The notes beneath the pieces were generated by a model. It did no database searches. It was given only the letters and a program-made list of their open reading frames with translations, and was not told the origin of the DNA. From Lachnoclostridium sp. UBA1175 (GTDB lineage Bacteria; Bacillota; Clostridia; Lachnospirales; Lachnospiraceae), in NCBI GenBank assembly GCA_002311665.1, contig DBYX01000008.1, forward strand, positions 27,268 to 91,267: 64,000 nucleotides of DNA, in the 5' to 3' direction. Of the stretch, positions 29,109 to 59,963 are shown in pieces; positions within the stretch are counted from its first letter, which is position 1, and each line of letters opens with the position of its first letter. Made by a program: the position numbers and the translations under genes.

Positions 29109-29211
29109 ATTTCGAACCTCCTTTTTCCATTTTTTGGATTATCATATTCAAAACATGTCCATTCTCAGTTACAACGTTTGATATACGCTGGTCAAAATAA
29201 GAACACCTTCA

Positions 29212-30285
29212 TTATAATATTATATTATTGACCCACGTTGTAACATCTCTATCTGGCATGCCAGGTCTACAAGAATTAATCATGTGTGCCCACATAACGC
29301 TTTCTCTGAAAGGACTACTCATAGATGCGACTCGGAAATAAGCTTTTTCTTCCTTTGCTTGTTCATCCAGTGCTATATCCGCCAGATCGATTAAAGATAA
29401 TGACTTCAAGTCTATCGTCATATACGGAATTTTCGTCGGTAACTCGGGCAAAGGAACCTTTGCATAATTGTATCCTGTGTGAATATATCTGGTAACTAAG
29501 TTATGCAATTCTTCACCACTTGGCATATTCCCAGAAGAATAATATAAATCTTTTGCCGCTTTACACTCGGCAACCAGAATTTTCTTGTTAGGCTTGGCGC
29601 GAGCCATATCGCAGGAAGGCGTAAGAACCACGCAGTACTGAGTTGCCTTTGCTATAGAAGAGCAGTTATTATTATTATTCTTTCTAAGGATATCAGCCGC
29701 CATTAAAGTCTTACTAATCGGAGGATATTCATATTCCATCCAAGCGGGAGGGAAAAAATCTTCCTCATCTTTGGGGAATGCGCTTTGAATTCTTTTTCTA
29801 AGCATATACTTCACTATATCAACATCAAGATTATTGATTGAAAAGTAATATGCCATTGCCTTGGCCGAAAGCAGAAGCGAACTGTTAAGTTCTTTCTTGG
29901 ATTCTTTTACAGCTTGTATATATGGTTCCCATTGTTCGATTTTGTCGATAACTACTTGTTCATCGCCTTTTGGGAGAATCTCAATCATCGGGTTTCCTTC
30001 TGCAATACTAACCACATCGTCTGATATCGTGGATGCAATTGCAGAAAAAACAATTACAGGAACAAAATCGTTTTCGTATAACGCCTTAAAAATCGGATCC
30101 CCTTCATGTGTGTTTTCAGCGTCATACATCCAATCCATTACTACCAAGTCGGGATTGTACAGCAGTAATTCTTTTGGTGCCTCCTGGAAAGTACAGTTCT
30201 TGTAATCCCAATCACCCTTATCTTCCACATAATCCATGATTCCTTGTACAGCCTCTTGCCGATCTTCAATAAAAAGTATTTTCAT
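29212..30285 (-). CDS. Receiver (REC) domain protein with uncharacterised ~230-aa C-terminal domain (possible PD-(D/E)XK nuclease effector)
   Basis: 357 aa. KILFIEDRQ (E7-D8), DLVVMDW (D51), VIVFSA (S81), ILPKG (K106). The C-terminus has no HTH. YCVVLTPSCD(226)-x13-VAE(240)CK(242) resembles a restriction-endonuclease core. The ATG overlaps the kinase stop (ATGA). Confidence 0.7.
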   Translation of the reverse strand: MKILFIEDRQEAVQGIMDYVEDKGDWDYKNCTFQEAPKELLLYNPDLVVMDWMYDAENTHEGDPIFKALYENDFVPVIVFSAIASTISDDVVSIAEGNPMIEILPKGDEQVVIDKIEQWEPYIQAVKESKKELNSSLLLSAKAMAYYFSINNLDVDIVKYMLRKRIQSAFPKDEEDFFPPAWMEYEYPPISKTLMAADILRKNNNNNCSSIAKATQYCVVLTPSCDMARAKPNKKILVAECKAAKDLYYSSGNMPSGEELHNLVTRYIHTGYNYAKVPLPELPTKIPYMTIDLKSLSLIDLADIALDEQAKEEKAYFRVASMSSPFRESVMWAHMINSCRPGMPDRDVTTWVNNIIL

Positions 30286-32402
30286 TTTGTTTCACTAATT
30301 GGAAAATCCACCACCAGAGATGCTCCACCAATTTTCCCGGGTTGCAGAACACCAACTTTTCCTCCGTATGATTTTATGATTTCTGTGACAATTACTAACC
30401 CCATTCCAATTCCTTTAGGTTTTGAAGTCACTCCTGGTACAAATATCCTTTCCGAATCTTTTTCGGCAATGCCCTTGCCGGTATCATTAACGGAAACACA
30501 ACATCTATCACCCTTAATCTCCTCAATAACAACAGATATCTTTTTGCGAACATCATTATCCTGCATCCAATAACAAGAATTATCGAACAAATTGATAAAA
30601 ACTGTCTGCAACTCACTAATAGGCACTACCACAAGAATATCATCACTTATACCGTTTTCCAATTCGACTCCCTCGCACATTTTTTTTGCGGAAATCAATT
30701 CAAAACTCTGCCTTACCGCCTCTTTTAGACTTACAGGCGGAACACGTTTTCTTAAGTCTCGTTTATAAAGCGGTGCAAAACTGTTTGTCACCTCAAGAAT
30801 TCGTTTATGACTTTTCAATGAGCTTTCATAATATCTTTCTGTCTTTACATCCATCGGCAACGTTTTCTTTACTCGATCCAAAAAACGTTTTATCGTAGTC
30901 ATACCCGTTAGTATTTCGTGCATAATAACTATTGCTACAGATCCCAAAGAAGCCGTTTGAGCATAGTAAATAAGCCGCTCATTCAATTCCTGTAACTGTA
31001 GTTCATTCTTTTCATGAAAGTCCCTGATATACTTTACAAGTTCTTCTGCATTTGCACCGTTTTTTGCAGCATTTTCTACTGATTCTACCAATTCGCCTGA
31101 AGATAAGGGTGTGAGCATTTCTGATAAAGATTCACCCTTTTTCCCTTCTTCTTTATCATTATTCCGCTCCCGCTGCAATGCATCAACGACCTCTAACATA
31201 GTCTCTACAAACTGCTTATATTGAGCTGTATCGGCAAGTTTCTCTCTGTCGGTTGTATCTTTAATGTCTGGGTTTCTTTCATTACTTATTTGAACTATCC
31301 CAATAATCTGATTAGTGCTCAGTCTACGTCCTATTTGACTTATTCGCTTGGCATCCAATCCCAGCCAGTCTCTACCTGCTTCAGACTTTGGCAAAACCAG
31401 CACCTTATCGCGATAAACAGAAATACCTTTATATAGTTTAATACTTGCTCTAATATCCCTTTTCCCAATTTCGAAGCGGTCAGACACCCCCTGAAGGCTC
31501 TCAGCGTCCATATCCCAAGCCCTCAATTCAAAGGAATAGGGCCCCGCAGAATATTTTTTTAGCTCTTTTTGATCGTGCAATAAATCTGCATTATTGTAGT
31601 TTTCAGCAGTCCACTCTATAGTTCCGCTGTTTTCTCTTTTTCTGTTTCCCTCTTCAAAATAATACTTGTATTCTATAGTGCCTTTTTCATTTACCTCTCC
31701 GATTATTTTATACGTTGGATTACCAATAAAGTTCTTGGATTCAACACGTATTCCTTCTGTATCACCTAGTGCTGTAACAAAAACATTGAAATCATTTATT
31801 TCCTCAAAAGGCGAAATCAACCGGGATAACTCATTCATAAGATCAGCTAACTTTTCACGATTGTCCCAATTGTCATTTAGATCTTGAATAATAATAGTGG
31901 TTCCTACACTCTCTACACTGTCTAGTACTCTCAACTTCATTTTACAATCGTCTAGTTTTTCTATTTCATTAAAGAGTTCCCAGTCAAAATAAGCCTCCAT
32001 TGCTGGGCCATCCTCTGTCTTAGTAATCATAGTCATAGTACGACCAAGTCGAGCAGCCGAAAACCGACCCAAGCCTTTGTTCCCGGAAACAATTCGTGTA
32101 TGTTCCACCCCGTCTATTACTCTTTTTACGTATGGATTATTCTTTTTGTACGGTGTTGCTATTGTCGCCCAGGCATTAACAATCACGTCCTTTGTCATCC
32201 CGTGACCATCATCCTTAATTACAATTCTCGGATTTCCATCCTTATCCTTTTCAAATATCAAGTTTACTGTTAGTGCATACGCATCATAAGCGTTCTTCAC
32301 CAGTTCTAATATCGCAACACTGTCACTGGTTACTAATTCTTCGCCAAATGCCGCGAATGCTCGCGGATGAATCTTTATATTAATGCTTTCTTCTTTATTC
32401 AC
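30282..32402 (-). CDS. Soluble hybrid protein: N-terminal GHKL (HATPase_c_3/MORC-like) ATPase module + C-terminal histidine kinase core (HisKA + HATPase_c)
   Basis: 706 aa, GTG start with RBS GGAGGTGA, no TM spans. N-terminal ILELVKNAYDA / KDDGHGM / GNKGLGRFS. C-terminal H-box TASLGSVAIVIMHEILTGMTTIKRFL, N-box INLFDNSCYW, G1 VNDTGKGI, G2 KPKGIGMGLVIV. Confidence 0.8.
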   Translation of the reverse strand: MNKEESINIKIHPRAFAAFGEELVTSDSVAILELVKNAYDAYALTVNLIFEKDKDGNPRIVIKDDGHGMTKDVIVNAWATIATPYKKNNPYVKRVIDGVEHTRIVSGNKGLGRFSAARLGRTMTMITKTEDGPAMEAYFDWELFNEIEKLDDCKMKLRVLDSVESVGTTIIIQDLNDNWDNREKLADLMNELSRLISPFEEINDFNVFVTALGDTEGIRVESKNFIGNPTYKIIGEVNEKGTIEYKYYFEEGNRKRENSGTIEWTAENYNNADLLHDQKELKKYSAGPYSFELRAWDMDAESLQGVSDRFEIGKRDIRASIKLYKGISVYRDKVLVLPKSEAGRDWLGLDAKRISQIGRRLSTNQIIGIVQISNERNPDIKDTTDREKLADTAQYKQFVETMLEVVDALQRERNNDKEEGKKGESLSEMLTPLSSGELVESVENAAKNGANAEELVKYIRDFHEKNELQLQELNERLIYYAQTASLGSVAIVIMHEILTGMTTIKRFLDRVKKTLPMDVKTERYYESSLKSHKRILEVTNSFAPLYKRDLRKRVPPVSLKEAVRQSFELISAKKMCEGVELENGISDDILVVVPISELQTVFINLFDNSCYWMQDNDVRKKISVVIEEIKGDRCCVSVNDTGKGIAEKDSERIFVPGVTSKPKGIGMGLVIVTEIIKSYGGKVGVLQPGKIGGASLVVDFPISETK

Positions 32403-32522
32403 CTATCTCACCTCCAATAAATCTGATTCATTCTATTAATCTACTCTTATTCGCTCACTGCCCGTTACTCTTTGCCTCTTTCTGGTTTACAACAACTATG
32501 CATTGCAGTTCTTTTTTTCTTT

Positions 32523-33704
32523 TTATTTCTCAACGGGCTTTTCACTACTATCTGTCAAATAGACTAGTTGGTCATATATAAACTCTGCCATCGTTTCTAT
32601 AACTGGAATCGAAACCGAATTCCCAAACTGTTTATATTTCTGCCCTTCAGGTATATTTTCAGGAAAAGAGAATCCCTCAGCTCCCGTTATAGGATCGACA
32701 AATCCATATCCTATAAACCCTTGAAGCCTTCCCCATTCAGTAGGAGTCATCATTCGAATATTTTTTTTATTTATCCCCCCTTTTTTCTTTAATGTTTTTT
32801 CTTCCTCATACGTATGAACCGGCATCTTTTGTATAACAAGATTTCGTTCCTTCCCGGAACCCCCAGTCGCCATTATAGTATTGGCATACTCCCGATTATG
32901 TTCTCGATTGTTTAGAACATAGTAACCGAACCCATTTCCATGTTCTTTTTGTCGTCTCGCGTGCTTTTCCAACGTATCCAGATAAGTTGCTGACAGATAG
33001 TATTTCAAATCAACTGACGCCTCTAAGATTTCGTTCAAATTCTTATTTAGGTACGGATGATCCAAAAGCCGCTGGCTTAGCTGTGATGGCAATTCATTTA
33101 CAAATCCCTCTGAATCCAATCGTGCTCCATACAAGTCTCTATTAAAAGCAATAAAATACGCACGGGGGCGATTCTGGGGCAACCCAAAATTTTTCGTGTT
33201 TCTTACAAACGATTTTTTATCATAAACCAACTCTCCATCATCTTCCTGAACAACCCCAATGACTTTATAGTTCAATTTCTTCTCTATCGTATCTATAATA
33301 ACCTTTATCGTTCTTTTCTTATCGTGAGATACGATATTCTGAACATTCTCCAAAAAAATAGCCTTGGGTCTACTTAATTCGACAATCTGTGCGATATGAA
33401 AAAAAATAGTGCCTTTTGTTAAATCACTAAATCCATCTAGGTTTCCCTGACTACTGAATGGTTGACAAGGGAAACCTGCCATTAGCACATCATACTTACA
33501 ATGAGACACCTTCTCTTTGAATTCGTCCGATGTCAGGTCATTTCTGGGGTCATCCCCAAACAAATGCTCATATGTCCTCGCCGCATATTCATCGACCTCT
33601 GCGGAGAGGACATTAACAAAATGTCCGGTTAATTCAAATCCTCTCCTAATTCCGCCGATTCCCGCACATAAATCTATTGTTCTATACATTTCCTTGTTTC
33701 TCAC
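32523..33704 (-). CDS. dcm: DNA (cytosine-5)-methyltransferase
   Basis: Motif I DLCAGIGG, IV GFPCQPFS, VI FLENVQN, VIII QNRPRAYFIAF, X QFGNSVSIPV. The start is GTG 33704 or ATG 33689. Confidence 0.95.
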   Translation of the reverse strand: MRNKEMYRTIDLCAGIGGIRRGFELTGHFVNVLSAEVDEYAARTYEHLFGDDPRNDLTSDEFKEKVSHCKYDVLMAGFPCQPFSSQGNLDGFSDLTKGTIFFHIAQIVELSRPKAIFLENVQNIVSHDKKRTIKVIIDTIEKKLNYKVIGVVQEDDGELVYDKKSFVRNTKNFGLPQNRPRAYFIAFNRDLYGARLDSEGFVNELPSQLSQRLLDHPYLNKNLNEILEASVDLKYYLSATYLDTLEKHARRQKEHGNGFGYYVLNNREHNREYANTIMATGGSGKERNLVIQKMPVHTYEEEKTLKKKGGINKKNIRMMTPTEWGRLQGFIGYGFVDPITGAEGFSFPENIPEGQKYKQFGNSVSIPVIETMAEFIYDQLVYLTDSSEKPVEK

Positions 33705-33707
33705 ATT

Positions 33708-34625
33708 CTAGTTTATTATTTCACCTATTATTCCATCTAGAGTAACTGTATATGTGATGTTCATAACACCTTCCGGCAAATCTCCTCCGATAAACGAAGA
33801 CCGTCTGATTGCCGGAAAGTTCTCATCGATAAGATACTTTGTAACAGCTATAATGGCATAGTTTCTTTTTCGTGCTGTCTTCCCCTTTTCCAACCCGAGT
33901 TTACTCAGTTTTTCATTCAATCCGGAAGAACTATATCCAAGTTCTTCCAAATCTTGAACCAAACTGTTAATACTGATTCCCTCTTGTGCTGATTCGAACT
34001 GACAAAGCATTAGATAGAGTTTTGCTCCGTCCGGAGGATCCAGTTGGAACAAATTACTGAGGGTTATTTGCTTTTTGTTTCTTGCTGTAGTTGATTTAAC
34101 TTCCGCATAATAACCACCGCAATCTATATCATATGTCGCTCCGTTAGGACCGTTCCATTCTGCCTGCTCTCCGTGTTCGGCAAGATACTTTAAAACCCAC
34201 AGTTCTCCAAGAACATCGTATGCGCGAAAATCAACATTCTTGTTGCCGAGTAATTCCCTCCATCGAGCCCACCAAGCCAGCGGATTGCTCTCCAGTTCTC
34301 TTCGCAATTCTCCGTTCTGTCCCGGAGTTATCATCTCGGCACACAATGCCGAAAACGGCTCGATTATGTCTTCTTTATCACTGGTTAAAAACAGAAAATT
34401 CTTTTCGGTTTCTCCATTTAATACTCTTTTATCTGTGTATAGGTGGGCTCCCGAAAAATACTCCGAAATATCCTCGTCCGTTTCTATCGGTACTGCCACT
34501 CCGTACTCAGAGCGATTTTTCAACGTCCAGGTCTCGTACCCCTCTTTTGAAAGACTCACCACGCTCATAAACATGCCGGAAGGTGTTCCCGCCCAATTAT
34601 TCATTAGTTCTTCTGTCAACATCAT
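33708..34625 (-). CDS. PD-(D/E)XK motif protein (putative restriction endonuclease component)
   Basis: 305 aa. ATYDID-x8-AEVKST core, typical of the 'PD-(D/E)XK motif protein' that accompanies Z1/GHKL/dcm clusters. 3 nt from dcm. Confidence 0.7.
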   Translation of the reverse strand: MMLTEELMNNWAGTPSGMFMSVVSLSKEGYETWTLKNRSEYGVAVPIETDEDISEYFSGAHLYTDKRVLNGETEKNFLFLTSDKEDIIEPFSALCAEMITPGQNGELRRELESNPLAWWARWRELLGNKNVDFRAYDVLGELWVLKYLAEHGEQAEWNGPNGATYDIDCGGYYAEVKSTTARNKKQITLSNLFQLDPPDGAKLYLMLCQFESAQEGISINSLVQDLEELGYSSSGLNEKLSKLGLEKGKTARKRNYAIIAVTKYLIDENFPAIRRSSFIGGDLPEGVMNITYTVTLDGIIGEIIN

Positions 34626-35358
34626 CGATTTCTATGGAAAGTTGCCTGAAAAGCATTCCCAAATATCCTTTCTCCGCATCTTTTACAAGCGCGGGTTCTG
34701 TAGTTCTGCAGTTAACCAGGTTCTGCTTTTGAATAGTATTGAAGAGGTCTGTGTTTTTGTTCTTCACACGAGAATAATCATACATTAGCTGCCGGTATAA
34801 CGCCAACCTGTAACCTTGTCCTGTTCGTTCAATAAGATCACTTATTGTATCAACCCCGAATCTGCGAAGCACATCATATGTCTCGGCTTCTGAACCTTGC
34901 CAGGAAAGAAAAATATACCACCACAGCGTTTTGAGCCAAATTCTTCGTGTGTGCGAGTAAAATCTCTTATGATTAATATGTCCGCCCTGTTCCAGTATCT
35001 CTTTTTCCGGAGTCGGGTATCTTTCATAAGTAATATCTGGGAACACTTTGCAAGACAGGTAACGCCATATATCATCATCACTCGCTAATACAAAGGAAAA
35101 ACCGTTCGCTGGATTGAACTCCCTATATAACGCGAATCCGACTTTTAAATCCGTTTCATACCATCCAAATGGTTTTGATTCTTTATAAACGGCAATAACC
35201 TTGTTTCTTAACTCATTATATTCAAAACTGAAATCGTCGACAATATTGTTCTTCCATTTGGCAATCAACTCGTCAAATAACGGTGCAGACAATTTGTCAA
35301 TATCATCGATCAAATGCTTTGCTTGGTCCTTTGTAAGTTTTTTGGTCGGAATCATCAA
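34597..35358 (-). CDS. Hypothetical protein (253 aa), no recognisable domain
   Basis: Long ORF with island-like codon usage. ATGA overlap with the upstream gene, and 8-29 nt overlap with the downstream gene. Confidence 0.6.
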   Translation of the reverse strand: MMIPTKKLTKDQAKHLIDDIDKLSAPLFDELIAKWKNNIVDDFSFEYNELRNKVIAVYKESKPFGWYETDLKVGFALYREFNPANGFSFVLASDDDIWRYLSCKVFPDITYERYPTPEKEILEQGGHINHKRFYSHTRRIWLKTLWWYIFLSWQGSEAETYDVLRRFGVDTISDLIERTGQGYRLALYRQLMYDYSRVKNKNTDLFNTIQKQNLVNCRTTEPALVKDAEKGYLGMLFRQLSIEIDDVDRRTNE

Positions 35359-36284
35359 TCATCGCCTCCGTTAATCATATCAGCAACATTCATCCAAATA
35401 GTTTTATGCATCCTTTCTTCCGTAGAAAAATCAATGTCCGTTTTGCAACTGTCTTTAAAATAATAAAGTATTTTGCTGATGCTTCCTTCCTCCAAATCAA
35501 CATCATTAATGGTGTTTGCAAGGCAACCGCAGTCCGATACCTTCCTATACAGCATCACATAAACCGTCGTTATGATATCTATCAAGACATCAGCATACTT
35601 TACCGTCTCACCCATTTTGGGACACAGTTCATATGCTGTATTCAGATAAATACAAAGACTATCTTCATCAAACAAATCTTTTTGGGGTTCACTCCAATCA
35701 GACAATTCCAGCCACCACATAGGAAGTTTCTTATCATTTATCTCCGCAATAGGGAACTCCATGTACATGCTTCCGAGATCAAGATGAACCTCATCCAGAA
35801 CACCTACCTTAACACCTTCATCGTTCATTAAAGATTCCTCGCCCAAAAGAATCTTTTCGGCGGCTTTTTTGATATACAGTTGAGTCTCGAGGCATAAATC
35901 CCCTTTGATTGTGCCGGGTTCAAACAAATAATCAAACTCGTACACACTAGATGCTTCATTCCTGTAAGTGTTCCCTGGAAGAATAGTACCCATTTGCTTC
36001 AGTGTTTTATTAGTCCAAATAATGCAAATTCCAAGCTCCGCATCTTCACACGCGATGCCCGATTTTCCATACAAGTATTCCGGATACTCAATGACAATAC
36101 TTCGTCTTATTCTCAAACCATCTCGTTCGATTCTCCAGGTATCATCATCGAATTTGACTACATTCTTGCCTTTTCCGATAAGCCTGCAGTCAAGATCATT
36201 AACGTTGTAACTGTATATATACGATGTCAATGAGAACCCTGCAGTTTCCAATAATTCATCTGTTAATGTCGGGTAAAAAAACAT
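35355..36284 (-). CDS. Hypothetical protein (309 aa), no recognisable domain
   Basis: Long ORF with island-like codon usage. It lies 17 nt downstream of the GHKL gene and overlaps the next gene by 4 nt. Confidence 0.6.
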   Translation of the reverse strand: MFFYPTLTDELLETAGFSLTSYIYSYNVNDLDCRLIGKGKNVVKFDDDTWRIERDGLRIRRSIVIEYPEYLYGKSGIACEDAELGICIIWTNKTLKQMGTILPGNTYRNEASSVYEFDYLFEPGTIKGDLCLETQLYIKKAAEKILLGEESLMNDEGVKVGVLDEVHLDLGSMYMEFPIAEINDKKLPMWWLELSDWSEPQKDLFDEDSLCIYLNTAYELCPKMGETVKYADVLIDIITTVYVMLYRKVSDCGCLANTINDVDLEEGSISKILYYFKDSCKTDIDFSTEERMHKTIWMNVADMINGGDD

Positions 36285-36301
36285 GATCGTCGCTCTCCCG
36301 G

Positions 36302-38419
36302 TTATTTATTGAATTCCTCAAGTATCTTATCAGACTTCATTTCCTTTAGTGTGAAACAATACTTTTTATCAGATGAAGTCAAAACAAGTCTTCCTGTAAC
36401 AATCGCATTTGTAATCTCGTTTTTCACTCTGATACCAAACGCGCTTCCTTCCTTTGTGTAAAGCAGTTCCAATTGCGTATAAGAGTTCTGAATCTGTCTG
36501 TTGTCAGGGCCGCAACTCGCCTCAATCTTTTCGGTTTTTCCCAGATCAACCGAATACGTTTTGCAATTACAGATAAGCGGAACCGCAATCGGAAATGCCG
36601 TACCGATATCAGATGCCCAAGTTTTAGCATCAACAAATCCTACCTCTGATTCAACAAACAGCCCTATAAGCGTTGACTTCAATTCGTTTTTGAATGTCAT
36701 TTTAAAGTCCATAGAAACACTGTTTCCATCAAACGTACTCGGTGAGAACTCCAGTATAAAATTACTGCTTTTTCCTCCTCCGCCTCCTGCGCCACCCGAT
36801 CCGGCTCCTCTTCTCTTGCCATAACCGAGTTTCGGCAACAATCTGTGCCCCAGCTTGCTGGAAAGTCTGCTGGCCGCTCCGGAAAGACTCGATACATCCT
36901 GCTTTTTGTAACAGTTATTTATCTTCTTGACGAGCTGATTCTTTATATTTGTGATTATCGTCTGCTTTGATTCATCATTCCAATCCATGTGGTCGGATTT
37001 TTCGCATCTTCTTAAGTACTCACCGAAATCGTTCTTTGCTAATCCGCTATCCCAATAAACACGCTTCACCTGAAGGGCACAATTCGGAACAAAGAAAACA
37101 AACAAAAAACTATCATCTCCCTCTGGCTTAACCAATCCCTTTGTCCAGTCCCCATCGACTTTATAATCAAGAACCACTCCTGCGGCTCTCGCAAACATAA
37201 CTATCGGATCATTATTAGTGAGCGTATTAAACATCCGAAGGTATGCTTTGGGCGGTATTATAGTACCGGTATTGCTTAGCTTCGAACTACTGACAACTAC
37301 AGATGCCGCATAGCCTGCCTGTCCGCCTTCGATTTTATTTGACGGTATTTGCACGCACTTAATATCACCGAATTTTGCCGAGTAATAGTCTTGACGTCCG
37401 TATTTATTTGCACTGAGAGCAGCAGTATACAGCTCTTGAATCAAAAGAAACAGCAAACGCATATCCTGTATCCTGAGCGGATCGCCGTTAACTCTTACGA
37501 CCAGCCTTTTTTGATCGGAATACGCTTTCAAGTTTTTGTTGTCAAGTTTCGGCGCATACCACTTCTGTGCAGCAAGTTTTGTATATTCGACAATGTCATC
37601 CTTAAACGAACACATTGCGATAACATCGTCTGAAATATCACAATTCTCAGGGAAGATGCCTTCCATTAGCCTTCTTTTGTCAATGTACGGTATGATAATC
37701 GAAGTGCCTGTTTCATCCTCACCAAACGGTGCAATTCCAAAAATATCCAGTATCTCCGATATCTCCTTTTCATCGGTTAACGGACCGATCTCATCGTCTC
37801 GATTACCATACTTCATTCCCCACCATGCTCTTCCGATTGAATCTTTGCGAATTTTGGTAAGAAGAGCATCCTGACTGCCTTCTCTTTCGACCAAAGCAAC
37901 TATAAGACGTGATTCGTAGCCGGTATCTATTTTAATGTGCGAATAAAAAACTACCAGCCCTATTCCCACTCTGAAATAAACGCTCTTTCCGTAGCCCCAG
38001 CTTCCTCCTGCTTTTCCGCCGTCACTGTTCGTTTGCTCTTTACCAGTATCGAAAACTAGTTTAAAAAAGTTTCCATGATCATTCGGGTCAATCTCACCGA
38101 CTTTTGTTTTTCCGGTTAAGCCAGATGTTTTCAGATCTCGTATTTCGAGATAATCCGCAGTAGCTGAAGGATACTTCTCATCCAAAATCACACCGATATC
38201 CTTCAACACCCGATTTAGTTTTGACGGACTGAATTCACTATAATTAAAGTTTACGCAGAAGAAGTTTTCAGGTTCGTTCAACGAAGCGTCCGAACTGTTC
38301 TGTATTGCCTCCCGAACAAGCAAGTCAACATCGGGAATATGGTCATTCTGCAATGCCTTCAGGGCTCCGCTTCCATATGACGAATTAATCGTTGTTCCTA
38401 AAATGCAACTGTCAAGCAT
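36302..38419 (-). CDS. GHKL-superfamily (MORC/Hsp90/sacsin-like, HATPase_c_3) ATPase
   Basis: 705 aa. Bergerat motif I LLVREAIQNSSDA, motif II-like IRDLKTSGLTG, motif III GGSWGYGKSVYF. Gly-rich GKRRGAGSGGAGGGGGK linker. 8-nt overlap with Z1. Confidence 0.75.
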   Translation of the reverse strand: MLDSCILGTTINSSYGSGALKALQNDHIPDVDLLVREAIQNSSDASLNEPENFFCVNFNYSEFSPSKLNRVLKDIGVILDEKYPSATADYLEIRDLKTSGLTGKTKVGEIDPNDHGNFFKLVFDTGKEQTNSDGGKAGGSWGYGKSVYFRVGIGLVVFYSHIKIDTGYESRLIVALVEREGSQDALLTKIRKDSIGRAWWGMKYGNRDDEIGPLTDEKEISEILDIFGIAPFGEDETGTSIIIPYIDKRRLMEGIFPENCDISDDVIAMCSFKDDIVEYTKLAAQKWYAPKLDNKNLKAYSDQKRLVVRVNGDPLRIQDMRLLFLLIQELYTAALSANKYGRQDYYSAKFGDIKCVQIPSNKIEGGQAGYAASVVVSSSKLSNTGTIIPPKAYLRMFNTLTNNDPIVMFARAAGVVLDYKVDGDWTKGLVKPEGDDSFLFVFFVPNCALQVKRVYWDSGLAKNDFGEYLRRCEKSDHMDWNDESKQTIITNIKNQLVKKINNCYKKQDVSSLSGAASRLSSKLGHRLLPKLGYGKRRGAGSGGAGGGGGKSSNFILEFSPSTFDGNSVSMDFKMTFKNELKSTLIGLFVESEVGFVDAKTWASDIGTAFPIAVPLICNCKTYSVDLGKTEKIEASCGPDNRQIQNSYTQLELLYTKEGSAFGIRVKNEITNAIVTGRLVLTSSDKKYCFTLKEMKSDKILEEFNK

Positions 38420-41204
38420 CTACGTATTCCTCTCTGATTTTTATTCTAAGTGACTTTGCATGGCTCTCACCGATACTGTCACCTGATACAATAATGCTTA
38501 TTCCGATAATATCACATTCTGTATTCAACGGCACTCTGTGAGTAGAATTGGCGCGAGGAGTACCGCCGTCTTTTTTGATTCGATATATCAATAAAAGAGG
38601 GATATCCTCAAGATTATAGTTTGCACGTTCTGCTATAACATCTTTTTTTTTCTTTATGACCGCTTTTATCGCTTCTTTCTGTTCCGGGGTCATCAATGAA
38701 ATATTCGCATCACTTAACGCATCCACACCAGAACGTAACGAACCGATATCTACATAGTCCTTTTCCTTTTTTCTGGTACGCTCAATAACGCCCGCCGTGA
38801 TTCCTTCCGTAATAACCCATGGATTTTCATTGTTGTCTCCGTCAACAACTGCAACATTCCAATTCACAAATCTTCCTTCTTTGTTCATTGCCTCTATCCA
38901 CTGAGAAAAATAAGGCAAGTTAGTATACAGAGAAGAATGCTTGGAAACAATAAACCTGCTTAAAAATCTGTCCCTTATCTCTGCATAAGGTATTTCATCC
39001 CATATCCATGCTTTTGCGGTGTCCGAACGTCTCGGCCGTTTCTTTTTTGCCAAATCTGCTACGTATCCCACAGTTGTACACAAGTTCGATCTGATTTGTG
39101 CCCCATCTTCAAAATCGGTGGTTTCATAGCTGTCTCCGCAAAAATCAAAGTCGTCATACTCAGCCATCTGACCTTTACGTTTTGATGTTATTCTGAACTT
39201 AGCAATCTCGGGAATATTACGGATTCTCGGTCCGAATTTCGAGGGAGAAACTCCTTGTTTCATAAATCTCTCTACTTCTCGCTTGAGATCCATGTCAACC
39301 TTTGTCAAAGCTTCAAACTTTTCCGTTACGGAATCCGTCATCCATATCCTTTGTAACAACTCATAACCTTTTCGATATCCAAACCATCTGGCCATTTGCA
39401 TAAGCGTATCCGCAAGGTTCGAGTTGCGAGAGAAATAAGTACATACAAGACCGTCAATCGTCAATCCTCGCGACAACGTATTTCCACCTATAACTATAAA
39501 TACCGGCGCCTTGCTCATTGCCTTCAATTGCTCATCGGTTGGATAAACAATTCTCAAATATGTCCCTTCTTCCGCTTCTTTATTTGCGCGACAATTGTCC
39601 ACGCACAAATGAATGCCTTCACCATACTCCAGGTTTTTATCATCTCCGAGTGCAATATTCCTTACATCCCCAAGTAATTCTATGATTTCACACTTCAGTT
39701 CAATAAACGCAGGATAGTCCTCAACCACCTCTCCAATGAAACCATATTCGGGATTAGCCGTTACTAAATCTTCCTTTGTTACACTCTTAATTTCCGCATC
39801 GTATATGTTTTCACACGTTAGCAAAACCTCGCTGGTTTTCGACAACCAGTTCTGAATTCTTTCATAAACAACAAAATGATATTTCTGTATTGCTGCCGTA
39901 TGAATCAACATACTGATCGGCTTTTTCCAAGCTCGCTTTCTCAATAAAGCAACTGAACACAAGAACCAGGCTATAGATTCCTTAAAGCTCCCCGGCAGAT
40001 CGAGTATTTGCTCTTTATGCAGTTTCATCAACTGCTTTTCATCTTCAGATGATATTCTTCTGGTTATAGGAAATCCGGGACAATCTTCTTCATCATTGCC
40101 AAAAATAACCTTCGCTCCGAAATACTCATGTGCCTCCGGTAATGTACAGATAAAATCCTTAGGATACAGAGATTCTCCCGGCACCTCATTTAACACATTA
40201 GCATATGGAGTTGCCGTGTAACTGATATAGTTCATTGATTGAAACTTCGCTTTGCCGGGAGGCGTTGATCCATCTGACATCTTCCCATTAACCAGATTGA
40301 CAATCATTCTATTTATTGCACATCGTTCCTGTTCTTCATCAGGAGTAATTTCGGCGGTATTAATACTTGCCTGATCCGCCTCATCATCAATAACAACTAT
40401 ACGCAATTTACTTGTTCTCTTTGGATCACTGTATAACCAGTCGATTAACCGTTCAAGACGTGTCCTGTTCTTAAGGCATACCGTAAGATATCTGTTCGCG
40501 TAGTTTTTGCTCCCAGACAATGTATTTAATTTCATTTCATCTGCTAAAAACCCCTTATCATCAGCGGTAAAATCAAGGACTTTCCAAAGAACGCCTCCTT
40601 CGCTGTTTCGAAGGTCTTTTTTGAACCTATCACGAGTCTGTTTTCTTAAGTTATCAATTGTGCCTGAAAGAATAATAAAAAAGTTCCAGTCATAATCAGC
40701 CGCCATACTGATTAATCCTTCCATGTTCGCCGTTTTGCCCGATTGGACACTACCGGTAACAAGACCCTTAACCTCACCGTAATTTCGAGTATCTTCCAGT
40801 AAATGATTGAGTATCCAATGACAACTCTTCTGTAAATTTGCTATTGATTCGGAACTCATCTTGTTTCTCAAATATGTCTTGTAATTCTCCCAAGATGACT
40901 CACGTCCGCAAGGAATGGGATGATGGTTTGAGAGCACTCCGTTATCAACAGCAATTACTTCTTCACCTTCAACTACGCTTACAATAACCACTATACTTTT
41001 GTAGTACTCAACAAAATCGAGCCACACTGCTCTGTTCATATTCAGCGGCCAAGATTCCTCATCAATCAAAAACCGCAATGCACTATCAAAATCCGAAGGT
41101 TCTACACATAATCCTTCGATTTCATCCCAGGTCTTGTTTTTATTCAGCATTGACGCTATCCATTCTTTACACGGCTGAAATGCTTTGCTTTCATAATCTA
41201 CCAT
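38412..41204 (-). CDS. Z1-domain protein (SF2 helicase-like ATPase fused to Z1 domain)
   Basis: 930 aa. Walker A TGSVQSGKTAN, DEAD-like VVIDDEADQASI, IGGNTLSRGLTIDGL and MQMARWFGYR (Z1 signature). Confidence 0.85.
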   Translation of the reverse strand: MVDYESKAFQPCKEWIASMLNKNKTWDEIEGLCVEPSDFDSALRFLIDEESWPLNMNRAVWLDFVEYYKSIVVIVSVVEGEEVIAVDNGVLSNHHPIPCGRESSWENYKTYLRNKMSSESIANLQKSCHWILNHLLEDTRNYGEVKGLVTGSVQSGKTANMEGLISMAADYDWNFFIILSGTIDNLRKQTRDRFKKDLRNSEGGVLWKVLDFTADDKGFLADEMKLNTLSGSKNYANRYLTVCLKNRTRLERLIDWLYSDPKRTSKLRIVVIDDEADQASINTAEITPDEEQERCAINRMIVNLVNGKMSDGSTPPGKAKFQSMNYISYTATPYANVLNEVPGESLYPKDFICTLPEAHEYFGAKVIFGNDEEDCPGFPITRRISSEDEKQLMKLHKEQILDLPGSFKESIAWFLCSVALLRKRAWKKPISMLIHTAAIQKYHFVVYERIQNWLSKTSEVLLTCENIYDAEIKSVTKEDLVTANPEYGFIGEVVEDYPAFIELKCEIIELLGDVRNIALGDDKNLEYGEGIHLCVDNCRANKEAEEGTYLRIVYPTDEQLKAMSKAPVFIVIGGNTLSRGLTIDGLVCTYFSRNSNLADTLMQMARWFGYRKGYELLQRIWMTDSVTEKFEALTKVDMDLKREVERFMKQGVSPSKFGPRIRNIPEIAKFRITSKRKGQMAEYDDFDFCGDSYETTDFEDGAQIRSNLCTTVGYVADLAKKKRPRRSDTAKAWIWDEIPYAEIRDRFLSRFIVSKHSSLYTNLPYFSQWIEAMNKEGRFVNWNVAVVDGDNNENPWVITEGITAGVIERTRKKEKDYVDIGSLRSGVDALSDANISLMTPEQKEAIKAVIKKKKDVIAERANYNLEDIPLLLIYRIKKDGGTPRANSTHRVPLNTECDIIGISIIVSGDSIGESHAKSLRIKIREEYVDA

Positions 41205-41205
41205 C

Positions 41206-41619
41206 TCATCTCTCCTTCAATGCTTTTTCGATGATATCTGCACACTCCGAACAATGTTTCTTGATATCGTTACCCCAAAAACGAATAACCTTCCAGCCAT
41301 TCGCTTCCAATTGTTCGTTTACTTCCGAATCTCTCTGCATGTTTCGTTCAATTTTGGGAATCCAAAAATCACGATTTGATTTAATATCGTTTTTTTGTTC
41401 TTCCCAATTATATCCGTGCCAGAATTCACTGTCACAAAATACTGCTACCTTTTTTCCGAGAAAAGCAATATCAGGGTGTCCGAACACTTTATTGGTGTTT
41501 TTCTGATATCTTATTCCTCGATTCCACAATTCTTTTCGCAGCATAAGTTCTATCTGTGAATTCTTATTGTGAACGGCTTTCATATTTTTCTTTCTTTGTT
41601 CGGGTGTATGATTATCCAT
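41206..41619 (-). CDS. vsr: Very short patch repair endonuclease
   Basis: Start trimmed to MDNHTPEQRKKNMKAV. GHPDIAF...AVFCDSEFWHG...FWIPKIERNMQRD...GWKVIRFW. The stop is 1 nt from the Z1 start. Confidence 0.9.
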   Translation of the reverse strand: MDNHTPEQRKKNMKAVHNKNSQIELMLRKELWNRGIRYQKNTNKVFGHPDIAFLGKKVAVFCDSEFWHGYNWEEQKNDIKSNRDFWIPKIERNMQRDSEVNEQLEANGWKVIRFWGNDIKKHCSECADIIEKALKER

Positions 41620-41918
41620 ATTTTGTTTCGCTGCTCTTTCGAATCCATTCTCACATTGTGATAATAAATCATTTACAATATTCGAGCACCATCTTTTGCT
41701 CACTATTATTGCAAATAGCACGTATCAACTCAAAGTAGACTTTTCCGTTCTTGACAATCAAAAGAATAGCTTATCCGTTCGTCATTCTACACAAACACAT
41801 TGGATTGAACCATCAAAAGCAAAACCTTTTGGGTTATTGTACTATAGTCAATTATTTTACATCAATAAGCTATTGCCTTTTTCCTGTACATCAGCCGTCT
41901 TTCCTTCAACCCGCACCA

Positions 41919-43232
41919 CTACTTCTTCACTTCCACATACACGTACCCGCAATAATGGTCCGAAATGTATCCGTCATCGTAAATCAGGTAATAATTGCCG
42001 GTTTCTTTTGCGCAGTCAAATGCGAAATAAATGTTAGCTGACATTCCCGGCTCTATATGATCTACATCATAGATGTTGGTATATCCGTCGATTTTTTCAT
42101 TTGTCAGAAAGCTTGCGGTATCGATATAATAGTTGTCCTTATACGCCCGCATGTTGTATCCCATCAATCTTGTTTCAAGCGCCGATGTTCCGGTGTTCGT
42201 TAGCTTAAACTTGAACACAAGATAATTGTCTTTTGTGTAGTTATCCGCGCGATGATGCTTCGCTCCCTTAAACTGGATCGTATAGTTGCCTTGATAGATG
42301 ATCTCGTCTTCCTTGGTATAGGACAGATCCTTGTTCAGCGGGAACATCGGGGATACCTTAAATTCCTTTGTGCTGACCTCTTCCGATGTGACCGTCCAAA
42401 CGCACTCGGATTTGAAGAAGAACTTCAACTCCTTCCATCCCTTGGGTACTTCGAAGTCCAAAGCGGTCAGCAGCTGAAACGAGTGGTCGAACGTGGTTAT
42501 TGTTTCGCCTGTGACTCCGTCGACGTAGCTCAGTAAAAAGTTTTCAACCTCAGTTACCTGGATTCCGTCCGCATAGCAGGAAATCGAGCTCCGATTGAAT
42601 ACCAGCTCCTTCCCGGTGTTGTTATAAATGTCAAAGAATCCGATGATCACTTCGTGATCTGCCGGGACGGTTTCTTTACCAAAAGCCGTCGGAAGATACG
42701 ACATTGACTTTACATATTGCAGTCCCACGTACTCCTTGCCGACTCGTCCGATATCGCCGATCTTCAGATCCTTGAATGATGTCTTGTGCCCTACGATCGG
42801 ATCCGGCGTCGGGGTCGGCGCAGGTGTGTTTGTGGGCGTCGGTGCCTTGGTCGGTTTCGGAGCGGAAGTACTTTTCGGAGTGTCGGTTTGCGTGCTTGTC
42901 TTGGTATCATCGGGTTTGTCGGAATCTTTTGATTCAATTCCGTTCATTATCACTGCGAACACTCCCACCAAGACAATGATAAGCACAATAACGCTTACCG
43001 ACGACCTTTTGTTCGTCGGCGTGTTATTGTTGTATCTTGTCGCTCCCGTAATAGGGTTACCGCAGTTCGGACAGAAATACTGCCGCGCCTGCGGATTGTA
43101 AGGGATCATCGCACCACAACTTTGGCACTGCTGCACCGGCTGCGACGAACTCATCCCCCTTACGTTTCCGCACCTGGGGCACTGACTGACACCGTCATTC
43201 AGCATACATCCGCATTTTGTGCATATTCTCAT
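41919..43232 (-). CDS. Zinc-ribbon / TM / Pro-Thr linker / DUF4352-like extracellular domain protein
   Basis: Start trimmed to MRICTKCGCMLNDGVSQCPRCGN (RBS GAGGAAGG). Second ribbon CQSCG...CPNCG. TM VIVLIIVLVGVFAVIM. Linker PKPTKAPTPTNTPAPTPTP. Confidence 0.65.
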   Translation of the reverse strand: MRICTKCGCMLNDGVSQCPRCGNVRGMSSSQPVQQCQSCGAMIPYNPQARQYFCPNCGNPITGATRYNNNTPTNKRSSVSVIVLIIVLVGVFAVIMNGIESKDSDKPDDTKTSTQTDTPKSTSAPKPTKAPTPTNTPAPTPTPDPIVGHKTSFKDLKIGDIGRVGKEYVGLQYVKSMSYLPTAFGKETVPADHEVIIGFFDIYNNTGKELVFNRSSISCYADGIQVTEVENFLLSYVDGVTGETITTFDHSFQLLTALDFEVPKGWKELKFFFKSECVWTVTSEEVSTKEFKVSPMFPLNKDLSYTKEDEIIYQGNYTIQFKGAKHHRADNYTKDNYLVFKFKLTNTGTSALETRLMGYNMRAYKDNYYIDTASFLTNEKIDGYTNIYDVDHIEPGMSANIYFAFDCAKETGNYYLIYDDGYISDHYCGYVYVEVKK

Positions 43233-43355
43233 AACCGGCACCGCCTTCCTCATACTCCTCAACCATCTCCGGCCGAACGACTCACTACCCTCGTATGCAA
43301 ATCGTTCGGCCGATCCGGCGTTCACTCAGAACCTTAATATGCTTTTATAGTCCGC

Positions 43356-44402
43356 TCACGGCTTATACGTCAGCTTCTCCTCGAAGAGATGGTCTGCCAT
43401 CCAGTCGTCGTCATCGTAGATGTCCAGCGTGTATTCGATCTCCTCGACTGTCGTGATCCCATTTTCCTCAAGGTGTGTGTCGGAAAATGTTATTTCCGAA
43501 TAGCCCTTCATCTTAGGCCCTACGCCCATGCTCCAGTAGGGATCGAGCATAAAGCCGTTCACACTGACGTCGTCCCAGTCGAACATCAGATTCTTGTCCG
43601 TCTTGTTCTCGACGTAGCACTTTAAGGTGTAGCCCCAGAAATCGTCATTAACCGCGCTGAGGATGATGAAGGTATAGTCGCTGTTGTCGACGACTACCTG
43701 TTCCGTTGCCGTTGTCTTTCTCGCCGGATACTGCACGGTTTCCGCGCTCTTGCCGGTGGGATAGATAGCGTAGAAGTCATCCACGATCCGGTCATCCAGC
43801 AAGTTGTTGTCGTCATAGATCCTCAGATTCCACTTGATCTCGTCTACGACGGAAAATCCTGCCTCTTCGAATCTTGTGGACGAGAAAGATATATCGCTGG
43901 TGGCTTTCTTGCCCGCGTCCACGGATTTGGCCCAGAACGGGTCGATCAGATAACCGTTGACGCTTACGCTCTCCACCGCAAACATCAGCTTCTTGTCCGC
44001 GGTCTTGTTCTCGCAGAGAACCTTGACCGTGAAGCCCCAGAAGTTGTCCTCCTCGATGCTGACGATCTTGAAGGTGCAGTATTCATTGTCTACCAGAACT
44101 TCGTCCGCGAGCGTGTATTCCGTCTTCGCCGGTGCCTTCGTAGGCTCCTTGGTCGGCTCTGCGGGCGGGGCTTCCGTGGGATCGGCGTTCGGTCCCTCCG
44201 TCGGCTGCGTGTCCGGGTTTGTCGGCTTGGCTTCATCCGTCGGTGTCGGCTTCTTGTCGTCCGTATCTTCCGTGCTGGTGTTCTTCTTGCTGTCCGACTT
44301 TCTGTCGTCGTCATCGTCGTCAGCGCCGCAACCGACCGCCATTGCCGCCAGCAGGCAGATCACGAGGATGAGGCTGAGTAGTCTTGCCACATTGTTCTTC
44401 AT
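43356..44402 (-). CDS. Lipoprotein with two internal ~125-aa repeats; paralogue of 59964..60953
   Basis: Start trimmed to MKNNVARLLSLILVICLLAAMAVGC (RBS AAAGGAG). Repeats VDNEYCTFKIVSIEEDNFWGFTVKVLCENKT... and VDNSDYTFIILSAVNDDFWGYTLKCYVENKT... Confidence 0.65.
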   Translation of the reverse strand: MKNNVARLLSLILVICLLAAMAVGCGADDDDDDRKSDSKKNTSTEDTDDKKPTPTDEAKPTNPDTQPTEGPNADPTEAPPAEPTKEPTKAPAKTEYTLADEVLVDNEYCTFKIVSIEEDNFWGFTVKVLCENKTADKKLMFAVESVSVNGYLIDPFWAKSVDAGKKATSDISFSSTRFEEAGFSVVDEIKWNLRIYDDNNLLDDRIVDDFYAIYPTGKSAETVQYPARKTTATEQVVVDNSDYTFIILSAVNDDFWGYTLKCYVENKTDKNLMFDWDDVSVNGFMLDPYWSMGVGPKMKGYSEITFSDTHLEENGITTVEEIEYTLDIYDDDDWMADHLFEEKLTYKP

Positions 44403-44436
44403 TGGATTGATCTCCTTTCGCGTTCTCGCTTGTGTC

Positions 44437-48021: not shown

Positions 48022-48228
48022 AGCATTTTCCTCCCTTTCCCGGGCCATCTCTCCCGTCCTCTGCCCCAAGGATACTCTCGAATGTGTACAATAAAAACGC
48101 CGCAAATAAAGGCGCGCCCCGGCGATCGGCCCGGAAACCCGGAGCTCATCACCGAAAGACGCGCCTTGACGGCCCTCGGCCGCCGGCTATAGCAGCCGCG
48201 GCAGCCTCAGAATGTGTTGTGGGTCAAA

Positions 48229-58828: not shown

Positions 58829-58862
58829 CACCCGATTCAAATTCATAAGCTCCAAAAAACAT

Positions 58863-58906
58863 CACCGCCGCCCGACTGCATAACGCAACGGACGGCGGTG
58901 TTTTTT
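58863..58906 (+). terminator. Rho-independent terminator
   Basis: CACCGCCG (58863-58870) ... CGGCGGTG (58893-58900) followed by TTTTTT. Confidence 0.85.
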
Positions 58907-59255
58907 GTACTCATTTTCCGAATAAAACATGGCTTTATGCGCCCCGCAGGGCCGGCTCAGAGTGACATAATCCAGGCGACTACGGCGATATAGTATATGA
59001 CGATCAGGGCCGCCGAGCAGCTTCAGCTATTACATCGCACATTACAGACGATCAGTATATTCCTTCAACAACCATAAAATGCAACATATCACTGCAATCC
59101 AATGCTTTTTCCTGGAATCAACACCTTAAGCCCCTTGTCCTCTGCACTAACAACCAATTGTTGGCCATCCCGATAATTGATATAATAAACAAACAAAAAC
59201 ACGCTTTGAAACAATACTCTTCCCTGTTGATTACCCACGGTTACACGAAAGGAAC

Positions 59256-59849: not shown

Positions 59850-59889
59850 AAAGAAAGCTAAATACAGTTTTCAAATATAACAAAACACC

Positions 59890-59917
59890 AACGGCCACCG
59901 GTTCCCCGGTGGCCGTT
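59890..59917. terminator. Terminator hairpin between convergent genes
   Basis: Perfect 12-bp stem AACGGCCACCGG / CCGGTGGCCGTT with loop TTCC. T-rich tail on the minus strand. Confidence 0.7.
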
Positions 59918-59963
59918 GTCATTCATCCTTATCCTTTTATCCTGTTCGTCCCTCACTGTTTTA

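Follow-up and report, generated by a model that had tools for sequence, protein, structure and literature searches.

A conserved seven-gene operon with a DEAD-Z1 motor, a predicted GHKL ATPase and a C5 methylase: a candidate restriction–modification-like defence system of gut and rumen bacteria

The DNA considered here (the window) is a stretch of 64,000 nucleotides from contig DBYX01000008.1 of Lachnoclostridium sp. UBA1175. At positions 32523-41619 it carries seven co-directional open reading frames (ORFs) on the minus strand, read from the ORF list and its translations as vsr, Z1, orf705, orf309, orf253, DUF4420 and dcm. Together they probably encode a multi-subunit, ATP-dependent defence system of the restriction–modification (R-M) kind, guarded by 5-methylcytosine (m5C) methylation. 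The reading draws on the conservation of the gene cluster across genomes, on the active-site residues of its enzymes and on its likeness to several known or predicted systems.

Layout and conservation of the operon

From the first gene to the last, the operon consists of the following ORFs.

vsr: 41206-41619, minus strand; 137 aa from ATG 41619; T:G mismatch very-short-patch endonuclease
Z1 protein: 38412-41204, minus strand; 930 aa; DEAD-Z1 helicase-like motor
orf705: 36302-38419, minus strand; 705 aa; predicted divergent GHKL (Bergerat-fold) ATPase
orf309: 35355-36284, minus strand; 309 aa; stand-alone protein of unknown function
orf253: 34597-35358, minus strand; 253 aa, or 252 aa from ATG 35355; DUF6339 family
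DUF4420: 33708-34625, minus strand; 305 aa (288 aa as called); PD-(D/E)XK nuclease, predicted cleavage subunit
dcm: 32523-33704, minus strand; 393 aa from GTG 33704, or 388 aa from ATG 33689; C5 cytosine DNA methyltransferase

The vsr and Z1 genes are separated by a single nucleotide, read directly as TGA-g-ATG. Z1 and orf705 overlap by 8 nt (ATGcTTGA), and a gap of 17 nt with GGGAGAG inside it precedes orf309. At the following junction (TGATG), with GGAGG 8 nt upstream, orf253 overlaps orf309 by 1 nt if it starts at ATG 35355 or by 4 nt if it starts at TTG 35358; the ATG is the more likely start. The overlap of orf253 and DUF4420 measures 29 nt, and the DUF4420 start at 34625 is supported by the N-terminus ML..E...NW, which is conserved in the homologues. 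Between DUF4420 and dcm the gap is 3 nt with GTG 33704 and 18 nt with ATG 33689. The vsr ORF can be extended to GTG 41721 (171 aa; 41620-41721), a start that some gene callers choose. ATG 41619 is preferred because the homologues are 136-150 aa long and the Vsr model begins at residue 1 of the 137-aa version. The junctions, 1, -8, 17, -1/-4, -29 and 3 nt, agree with the intergenic distances that the initial annotation had given. Since promoter and terminator scans returned counts at chance level, transcript boundaries cannot be claimed.

A locus scan with one genome per species yielded 20 loci encoding orf309 relatives. About 17 genomes from gut and rumen bacteria share both the seven-gene order and its coupling, at 38-95% identity. 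Searches by tblastn with all seven proteins returned this order on every contig of sufficient length, with identities to the window of 38-70%. All seven genes are seen at loci L001, L004-L007, L011, L013, L014, L016, L017, L019, L021 and L022; the other loci are partial. Neighbouring genes in almost all such loci either overlap or lie no more than about 28 nt apart; the three outliers (-59, -86 and 39) come from automatic start calls. As both the order and the tight junctions recur across loci, the arrangement is more than chance, and the initial annotation's description of a single, translationally coupled operon that begins with vsr and ends with dcm holds. The hosts are gut or rumen Lachnospiraceae, Oscillospirales (Flavonifractor, Agathobaculum, Butyricicoccaceae), Erysipelotrichaceae, Acidaminococcaceae and Bacteroides/Parabacteroides; contigs from bovine rumen metagenomes also match the window.

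The genes of the cluster have not all diverged together. All-pairs identities in the 13 complete clusters show that vsr, Z1, orf705, orf309, DUF6339 (the orf253 family) and DUF4420 co-diverge, with r between 0.74 and 0.98. The values for vsr against the five restriction genes lie at 0.74-0.79, and DUF4420 follows Z1 at r 0.98, as tightly as orf705 does. The dcm gene is discordant with the other six (r 0.30-0.41). Loci L004 and L007 illustrate this, with Z1 proteins 95% identical, Vsr 94% and Dcm 52%. Both dcm and vsr are present in every complete locus, where they bracket the other five genes.

The encoded proteins

The initial annotation had named the Z1, PD-(D/E)XK (DUF4420), Dcm and Vsr proteins correctly, as matches to family models confirm. 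The Z1 protein consists of an N-terminal region, a DEAD domain, the Z1 domain (residues 406-665) and a C-terminal domain. It matches Pfam Z1 (2e-49), PADLOC MzaC (2e-59) and PADLOC Helicase_II (5e-35), the last being a REBASE-derived model of a "Type II helicase domain protein"; its score against NCBIfam MzaC, 256.4 bits, lies below the equivalog cut-off of 1500. Walker A (G151..GKT158), the DDE of Walker B (273-275), TATP 330-333, R579 and R606 are invariant in 15 Z1 proteins, including those of Mza loci. By its sequence, the protein has all the ATPase motifs and is predicted to be a DEAD-Z1 motor like the H-subunit of CglI. Searches of PDB sequences with the single Z1 sequence and with the 15-sequence profile gave no match, so the link to CglI rests on the PADLOC Helicase_II model and on matches in the plasmid collection.

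The DUF4420 protein matches its Pfam family at 1e-30 and NCBIfam MzaD at 46.9 bits, below the cut-off of 420. E141, D166, E175-V-K177 and Q194 are invariant in 13 sequences, three of which come from Mza-type or Z1-paired loci. An active PD-(D/E)XK nuclease with an intact E-D-ExK-Q site is thus a credible prediction. A search of PDB sequences with this protein found no match.

Vsr (Pfam Vsr, 3e-25; TIGR00632, 142.8 bits against a cut-off of 97.85) and Dcm (Pfam DNA_methylase, 2e-66; TIGR00675, 231 bits, above the cut-off) belong to well-defined families. The Dcm translation shows the C5-methylase motifs CAGIGG, GFPCQ, ENV, QNRPR and GNSV, and the enzyme is predicted to be a catalytically intact C5 methyltransferase. 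It lacks a C-terminal tail of about 45 aa that is found in all seven aligned homologues (L001, L004, L005, L007, L011, L016 and L021). This tail, with the consensus ITKRDVMExL..A.YLLRK...G.L....GR.AKY, occurs in two copies in L016, and from its sequence it looks like a winged-helix motif. The discordant divergence of dcm implies that clusters which are near-identical in other respects have exchanged their methylase gene. Because the target-recognition region is conserved in all eight aligned methylases, the exchanged genes are probably iso-specific. That the exchange changes specificity was considered and set aside on the same ground (8/8). The conserved region would fit a fixed restriction specificity.

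The orf705 protein is linked to the GHKL ATPases by its predicted structure. Besides a transducer-like domain it has a disordered linker rich in Gly (507-551) and, at its C-terminus, a beta-sandwich (554-694). With the AlphaFold2 (AF2) model, whose predicted local distance difference test score (pLDDT) is 77, Foldseek found 16 PDB matches at E<1e-3. All of them are topoisomerase VI-B, the best at 3.7e-8 with a probability of 1.0, over more than 540 aligned columns. Bergerat motifs I-IV are invariant in the orf705 family: E37-x3-N41-x2-D44; D95...G100..G103; G138-G139..G142-x-G144-K145; and T237-G238-T239. The fold match and these motifs together identify orf705 as a highly divergent GHKL ATPase with a transducer-like domain, an assignment made from predicted fold and motifs and not from sequence homology.

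Comparisons at the sequence level were negative. None of the 33 members of the orf705 family matches any Pfam GHKL (HATPase_c) model at E<=1. Single-sequence scans of the Pfam and NCBIfam libraries gave no match, and neither did the family profile against PDB sequences. By hhalign, the family reaches a probability of 0.1% against the ATPases at the MzaB position of two Mza-type loci (L026 and L027), whose profile is shallow, with two sequences; the probability is 0.3% against the HATPase_c_3 protein encoded next to the operon. A tblastn search of the phage and plasmid collections with orf705 found no match. The protein does match the PADLOC model PDC-M33A weakly (8.7e-9, about 80 residues). 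Membership of GHKL or MORC at the level of sequence was rejected on the Pfam, PDB-profile and both hhalign results. Of the "MORC-type GHKL" in the initial annotation, the GHKL part is thus supported by the topoisomerase VI-B fold and the Bergerat motifs, whereas the MORC part finds no match to a sequence model.

The two genes after orf705 had been described as ORFs with no recognisable domain, and a split AIPR protein had been proposed as a check. For orf309 the description stands, with no match in Pfam, NCBIfam or PADLOC; orf253, however, matches Pfam PF19866 (DUF6339) at 26.5 bits against a cut-off of 23.2, as do 20/20 of its homologues. The orf253 protein also matches PADLOC PDC-M33C (3e-4). 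Its family has invariant Arg/Trp-rich motifs, RF..HTRRIWLKTLWWY and ERxGxGYR, and the DUF6339 profile has no match among PDB sequences. All 120 of the DUF6339 relatives listed are single-domain proteins of about 200-285 aa. The orf309 model (AF2, pLDDT 85) shows one or more N-terminal beta-sandwich regions and a C-terminal helical bundle, and Foldseek found no PDB match for it at E<1e-3. A full search with its hidden Markov model (HMM) places 608 representatives at 50% clustering in the orf309 family, 519 of them at E<=1e-10. The 150 relatives listed are either free-standing proteins about 300-340 aa long or shorter fragments. The orf309 gene always lies between orf705 and DUF6339.

Against an AIPR alignment, hhalign gave probabilities of 0.15% for the orf309 family and 0.04% for the orf253 family; the alignment has three sequences only, and very remote homology is possible. 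Pfam AIPR (PF10592) matches none of the 52 members of the orf309 and orf253 families at E<=1, and Pfam finds no AIPR domain in any of the nine proteins of the genomic island that holds the operon. The profile comparisons, Pfam and the fold of orf309 give no support to a split or divergent AIPR, and this candidate was dropped. By their sequences, orf309 and orf253 are families of their own and not AIPR fragments.

Known systems, related loci and the surrounding island

A defence system with this gene content was predicted by Miller et al. in 2022 from gene-context embeddings (PMC9523054, Nat Commun 13:5731, section 11, Suppl. Table 11). Its core consists of a 925-aa Z1 protein, a DUF4420 PD-(D/E)XK protein and a C5 methylase. 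The "Type I" version adds a 704-aa protein (HHpred MORC2, non-significant), a 231-aa DUF6339 protein and a 310-aa protein without a domain. "Type II" carries AIPR instead and resembles mzaABCDE (PMC9523054). The lengths of "Type I" and window proteins agree closely: 925 and 930 aa for Z1, 704 and 705 for the protein with the MORC2 HHpred result (orf705 here), 298 and 305 (288 as called) for DUF4420, 231 and 252 for DUF6339, and 310 and 309 for the remaining protein. In both, a C5 methyltransferase belongs to the core genes; the "Type I" set is also strongly associated with DNA repair endonucleases, represented here by Vsr. The match is one of composition and length only. Unlike the "Type I" listing, the window has a kinase-like/receiver-like gene pair downstream, and its Dcm is without the C-terminal tail.

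As the set matches this computational prediction, it is not new, and the novelty implied by the initial annotation was overstated. The statement that the whole class is essentially uncharacterised is right for this type, but the DEAD-Z1 motor of CglI has been studied biochemically (PMC5861437), and Miller et al. describe mzaABCDE as a validated defence system, citing Gao 2020 (PMC9523054). On PDC-M33, DUF6339 and the mechanism of Mza, the literature search returned nothing beyond Miller et al. The PADLOC and NCBIfam models name no such type, since MzaC and MzaD lie far below their cut-offs and the PDC-M33A/C matches are weak.

With Mza, the operon shares a DEAD-Z1 (MzaC-like) protein followed by a DUF4420 PD-(D/E)XK (MzaD-like) protein, both with their active-site residues, and a predicted GHKL ATPase. 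It differs in having neither AIPR (MzaE) nor a sigma factor (MzaA), with orf309 and DUF6339 instead, and in the integral place of dcm and vsr; moreover, no sequence similarity was detected between orf705 and the ATPases that occupy the MzaB position in L026 and L027. The initial annotation's view of an R-M-like relative of the Z1/GHKL/AIPR (Mza-type) clusters that lacks AIPR is borne out.

A second likeness is to the R2H2 enzymes CglI and NgoAVII (PMC5861437, PMC4267653), which also combine a C5 methylase, a DEAD-Z1 motor and a separate nuclease subunit. In CglI the DEAD-Z1 unit is a double-stranded DNA (dsDNA) translocase, and its ATP hydrolysis activates the separate nuclease subunit (PMC5861437). 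The window protein retains the intact Walker A and B motifs and motif VI of such H-subunits. The nuclease here is of the PD-(D/E)XK type (DUF4420), in contrast to the B3-like and PLD domains of theirs, and no operon protein contains a PLD or B3 domain as found in the CglI R-subunit. The window has in addition the GHKL-like protein, orf309, DUF6339 and Vsr, and its Z1 protein, at about 930 aa, has additional N- and C-terminal regions. The Z1 protein also matches the gonococcal chromosome at a locus without listed annotation, which we take to be NgoAVII.

The MORC/paraMORC R-M operons predicted by Iyer et al. in 2008 combine Dcm and Vsr with three further proteins: a GHKL+S5-type ATPase, a superfamily 2 (SF2) helicase and an E-D-ExK nuclease of the restriction-endonuclease (RE) fold (PMC2292703). 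The gene content of the window operon follows the same theme. Its predicted structure gives orf705 the GHKL motifs and the S5/transducer domain of that group. Unlike its members, orf705 is not assignable by sequence to MORC or to paraMORC1-5, and its significant structural matches are to topoisomerase VI-B and not to MORC or MutL. The weak matches of orf705 to PDC-M33A and of orf253 to PDC-M33C are shared with a PADLOC candidate system; they cover small parts of the profiles, and orf309 matches nothing there. They suggest, from sequence profiles, a wider class of modules with GHKL-like and DUF6339-like proteins.

Related loci show that parts of the operon also occur in other combinations. Canonical Mza-type loci lie on a Neorhizobium plasmid (sigma factor, ATPase, Z1, PD-(D/E)XK and AIPR) and on a Hymenobacter plasmid (ATPase, Z1, PD-(D/E)XK and AIPR). 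The 240-aa protein encoded after AIPR in the Neorhizobium locus is not DUF6339-like. Z1 and DUF4420 occur without the trio of orf705, orf309 and DUF6339 on a Priestia plasmid and in the Mza-type loci, and the pair recurs beside dcm and in canonical sigma-factor/ATPase/Z1/PD-(D/E)XK/AIPR clusters. A four-gene module on an Agrobacterium salinitolerans plasmid (L025, NZ_CP109970, 7644-13828) lacks a methylase, DUF4420 and vsr; it encodes a Z1 protein of 899 aa, an orf705-like protein of 631 aa, a 298-aa protein and DUF6339. Its orf705-like protein aligns with the orf705 family at an hhalign probability of 97.9% over 340 residues, and its DUF6339 protein aligns weakly with the orf253 family; similarity between orf309 and the 298-aa protein is not detectable. 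The module is flanked by Gabija-like (AAA ATPase and UvrD-type helicase) and Septu-like (PtuA-type ATPase) genes. Because Z1 pairs with either DUF4420 or the trio in these variants, it looks like a hub for nuclease or clamp modules.

In two metagenome contigs (L002/L003) a variant with 27-35% identity carries the C5 methylase between DUF6339 and DUF4420. There the genes continue with a second dcm, EcoRII and vsr, and then with an AAA_5 ATPase and a DUF2357/PDDEXK_7 protein, a pair read as McrBC-like. These contigs represent a dense defence island.

The operon of the window itself lies in a nine-gene stretch of 13 kb that is set off by its guanine-plus-cytosine (GC) content. At 38-42% GC against a background of about 59%, it appears to be a laterally acquired island. 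No tRNA genes were found in the window, and a scan of the 26-46 kb region gave no convincing flanking direct repeats. The features of the island beyond the operon, and those that adjoin related clusters, are as follows.

Low-GC island: 29109-41918; no strand; 38-42% GC, nine genes, 13 kb
Kinase-like gene: 30282-32402, minus strand; 706 aa, with N-terminal HATPase_c_3 and C-terminal HATPase_c (Pfam, 6e-21 and 2e-19)
Receiver-like gene: 29212-30285, minus strand; 357 aa, overlapping the 706-aa gene by 4 nt; unknown C-terminal domain
HNH/HNH_2 gene beside other clusters: L001 9454-10203; L013 3887-4621; L014 10665-11435; L019 14193-14906

The co-directional, operon-like stretch does not end cleanly at dcm, and the two further genes belong to the same island. 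The spacer after dcm is 120 nt long, with no terminator detected, and GGAGG precedes the GTG start of the next gene. The N-terminus of the 706-aa protein resembles the restriction enzymes BbrUII/HgiDII (1.8e-17), and residues 2-84 of the 357-aa protein match the PhoB receiver weakly (5.8e-4). Among the clusters, such a pair after dcm is found in the window and in L007 only, where the homologue of the 357-aa protein matches at 1e-39. On the Hymenobacter plasmid (L027), a trio of dcm, kinase-like and receiver-like genes adjoins the canonical Mza-type system. Across its full length the 706-aa protein shares 27% identity with the kinase-like protein there, and the C-terminal domain of the 357-aa protein resembles its partner (4e-6). 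"TCS-like" kinase/receiver pairs linked to C5 methylases and Vsr have been described (Bellieny-Rabelo 2021). The downstream pair has their layout, with HATPase_c_3 and a kinase-type HATPase_c, a receiver-like neighbour and an adjacent C5 methylase. PF19191 (HEF_HK) and PF19192 (Response_reg_2) have no match at E<=0.01 in the window, L007 and L027 proteins. The single dcm of the window may be shared by the Z1 system and this pair.

Four other clusters have a gene for an HNH/HNH_2 endonuclease of about 245 aa beside them on the same strand, after dcm in three cases and before vsr in one. This gene is absent from the window.

On the other side of the operon, about 2.7 kb upstream of vsr, a WYL-WCX transcription regulator is encoded on the minus strand (44437-45426). 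We take it to be of the BrxR/CapW type known from defence islands. Beyond the WYL regulator comes a HIRAN-domain gene (L029). In L005, too, a homologue of the WYL gene stands upstream of the cluster, there broken into two ORFs. Between the regulator and vsr lie two further genes (41919-43325 and 43356-44456, minus strand), both intermediate in GC content. The product of one contains zinc ribbons and a hydrophobic segment along with a Pro/Thr-rich linker, and its DUF5067/DUF4352-like matches are weak; that of the other, which also has a Pro/Thr-rich region, is probably a lipoprotein. The GC content dips again, to about 46%, at about 48000-50000 and 58000-60000, where other acquired segments may lie.

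Proposed mode of action and alternative explanations

In the R-M-like system that the operon probably encodes, Dcm would mark the host DNA at a fixed short site, and Vsr would repair the T:G mismatches that arise from m5C deamination, offsetting the mutational cost of the mark. The DEAD-Z1 protein and DUF4420 would form the restriction core. By analogy with the R2H2 complex of CglI, the motor would translocate on unmethylated foreign dsDNA and thereby activate the nuclease. The GHKL-like orf705, together with orf309 and DUF6339, may act as an ATP-gated dimerising clamp or adaptor. This trio might capture or loop DNA, or license cleavage, and would stand in for MzaB (GHKL) and AIPR of the Mza systems. 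The whole unit would move horizontally as a cassette among gut and rumen anaerobes. The identities of the components and their intact sites are read from sequence or predicted structure; from these we infer that the proteins form a complex, what the trio does and that restriction depends on methylation status.

Several points weigh against this reading. The GHKL assignment of orf705 depends on a model with a mean pLDDT of 77 and low TM-scores of 0.24-0.39, in addition to the motifs. The restriction, methylation and phage defence ascribed to this type are deduced from genes and models, as is the association of the seven proteins, and sequence recognition is not assignable to any one subunit. 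The genealogy of dcm is discordant with that of the other operon genes, which makes it the least tightly integrated part. Because the Agrobacterium module has neither methylase nor DUF4420 nor vsr, the trio and the motor may act independently of methylation.

An alternative, which we regard as unlikely, is that two separable systems are co-transcribed: a methylation-independent module of Z1, orf705, orf309 and DUF6339, and a conventional Type II-like R-M system of DUF4420, Dcm and Vsr. The four-gene module does stand alone on the Agrobacterium plasmid, dcm does diverge independently of the other genes, and the PADLOC candidate PDC-M33, which holds distant relatives of orf705 and DUF6339, is a separate one. 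Against it, the divergence of DUF4420 tracks that of Z1 (r 0.98) no less closely than that of orf705 does. The adjacency of Z1 and DUF4420 in Mza-type loci and in L024, all without the trio, shows that Z1 is linked to both halves. The bracketing of the other five genes by vsr and dcm in every locus, and the position of dcm between DUF6339 and DUF4420 in L002, also speak against a division into two. Another explanation assigns dcm to the downstream kinase-like/receiver-like pair, as in the "TCS-like" R-M systems (Bellieny-Rabelo 2021), and treats the six upstream genes as independent. The published link of such pairs with C5 methylases and Vsr is strong (Bellieny-Rabelo 2021), 120 nt without a detected terminator separate the pair from dcm, and the same trio is present on the Hymenobacter plasmid. 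Yet at least 12 complete clusters keep dcm in place without the pair, which only the window and L007 have, and four clusters have the HNH endonuclease beside them instead. The dcm gene is thus a fixed part of the seven-gene unit, and what stands next to it varies. Ownership of dcm by the pair is accordingly very unlikely, and one methylase shared by two restriction modules is the more likely arrangement.

A role outside defence, in DNA repair or in an epigenetic organisation of the chromosome, would have a topoisomerase VI-B/MutL-like GHKL ATPase, a helicase and nucleases process methylation-linked mismatches or DNA topology. It would account for the co-divergence of Vsr with the five core genes and for the match of the orf705 fold to a topoisomerase subunit, and functional interactions of MutL with Vsr and UvrD are known (Iyer 2008, PMC2292703). 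The patchy distribution of the cluster across phyla, its lateral transfer and its place in a low-GC island speak against such a role. Nor do the companions of related loci favour it: these hold EcoRII, an AAA_5 ATPase with a PD-(D/E)XK protein, and Gabija-like and Septu-like genes. The relatives of Z1 and DUF4420 belong to Mza, which Miller et al. describe as a validated defence system (PMC9523054). Among the operon proteins, the searches turned up neither a TOPRIM nor a Spo11-like partner. With these points taken together, a repair or chromosome-organising function has very little probability.

A more far-reaching idea is put forward as a speculation, rather doubtful as it stands. The trio could be a self-contained, topoisomerase VI-B-like, ATP-gated DNA clamp or sensor without Spo11/TOPRIM, used on DEAD-Z1 motors as an alternative to MzaB and AIPR, with a methylase or, as on the Agrobacterium plasmid, without one. 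In the island of the window, one exchangeable Dcm could then serve as the self mark for two unrelated GHKL-based restriction modules, the Z1/DUF4420 machinery and the kinase-like/receiver-like pair.

Prokaryotic MORCs are the presumed ancestors of the eukaryotic MORC chromatin regulators. To our knowledge, nobody has demonstrated what a GHKL ATPase does beside a helicase and a nuclease. The operon is a compact 9-kb version of this GHKL-in-restriction problem, strongly conserved and found widely among bacteria of gut and rumen. It has catalytic sites defined well enough for mutagenesis, together with three partners without known function: orf705, orf309 and DUF6339. As the gene set was catalogued in 2022, its value is that of a test system and not of a discovery. 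In gut Firmicutes and Bacteroidetes the system is a likely barrier to phage and plasmid transfer, and it would thus bear on the genetic manipulation of these bacteria and on phage therapy.

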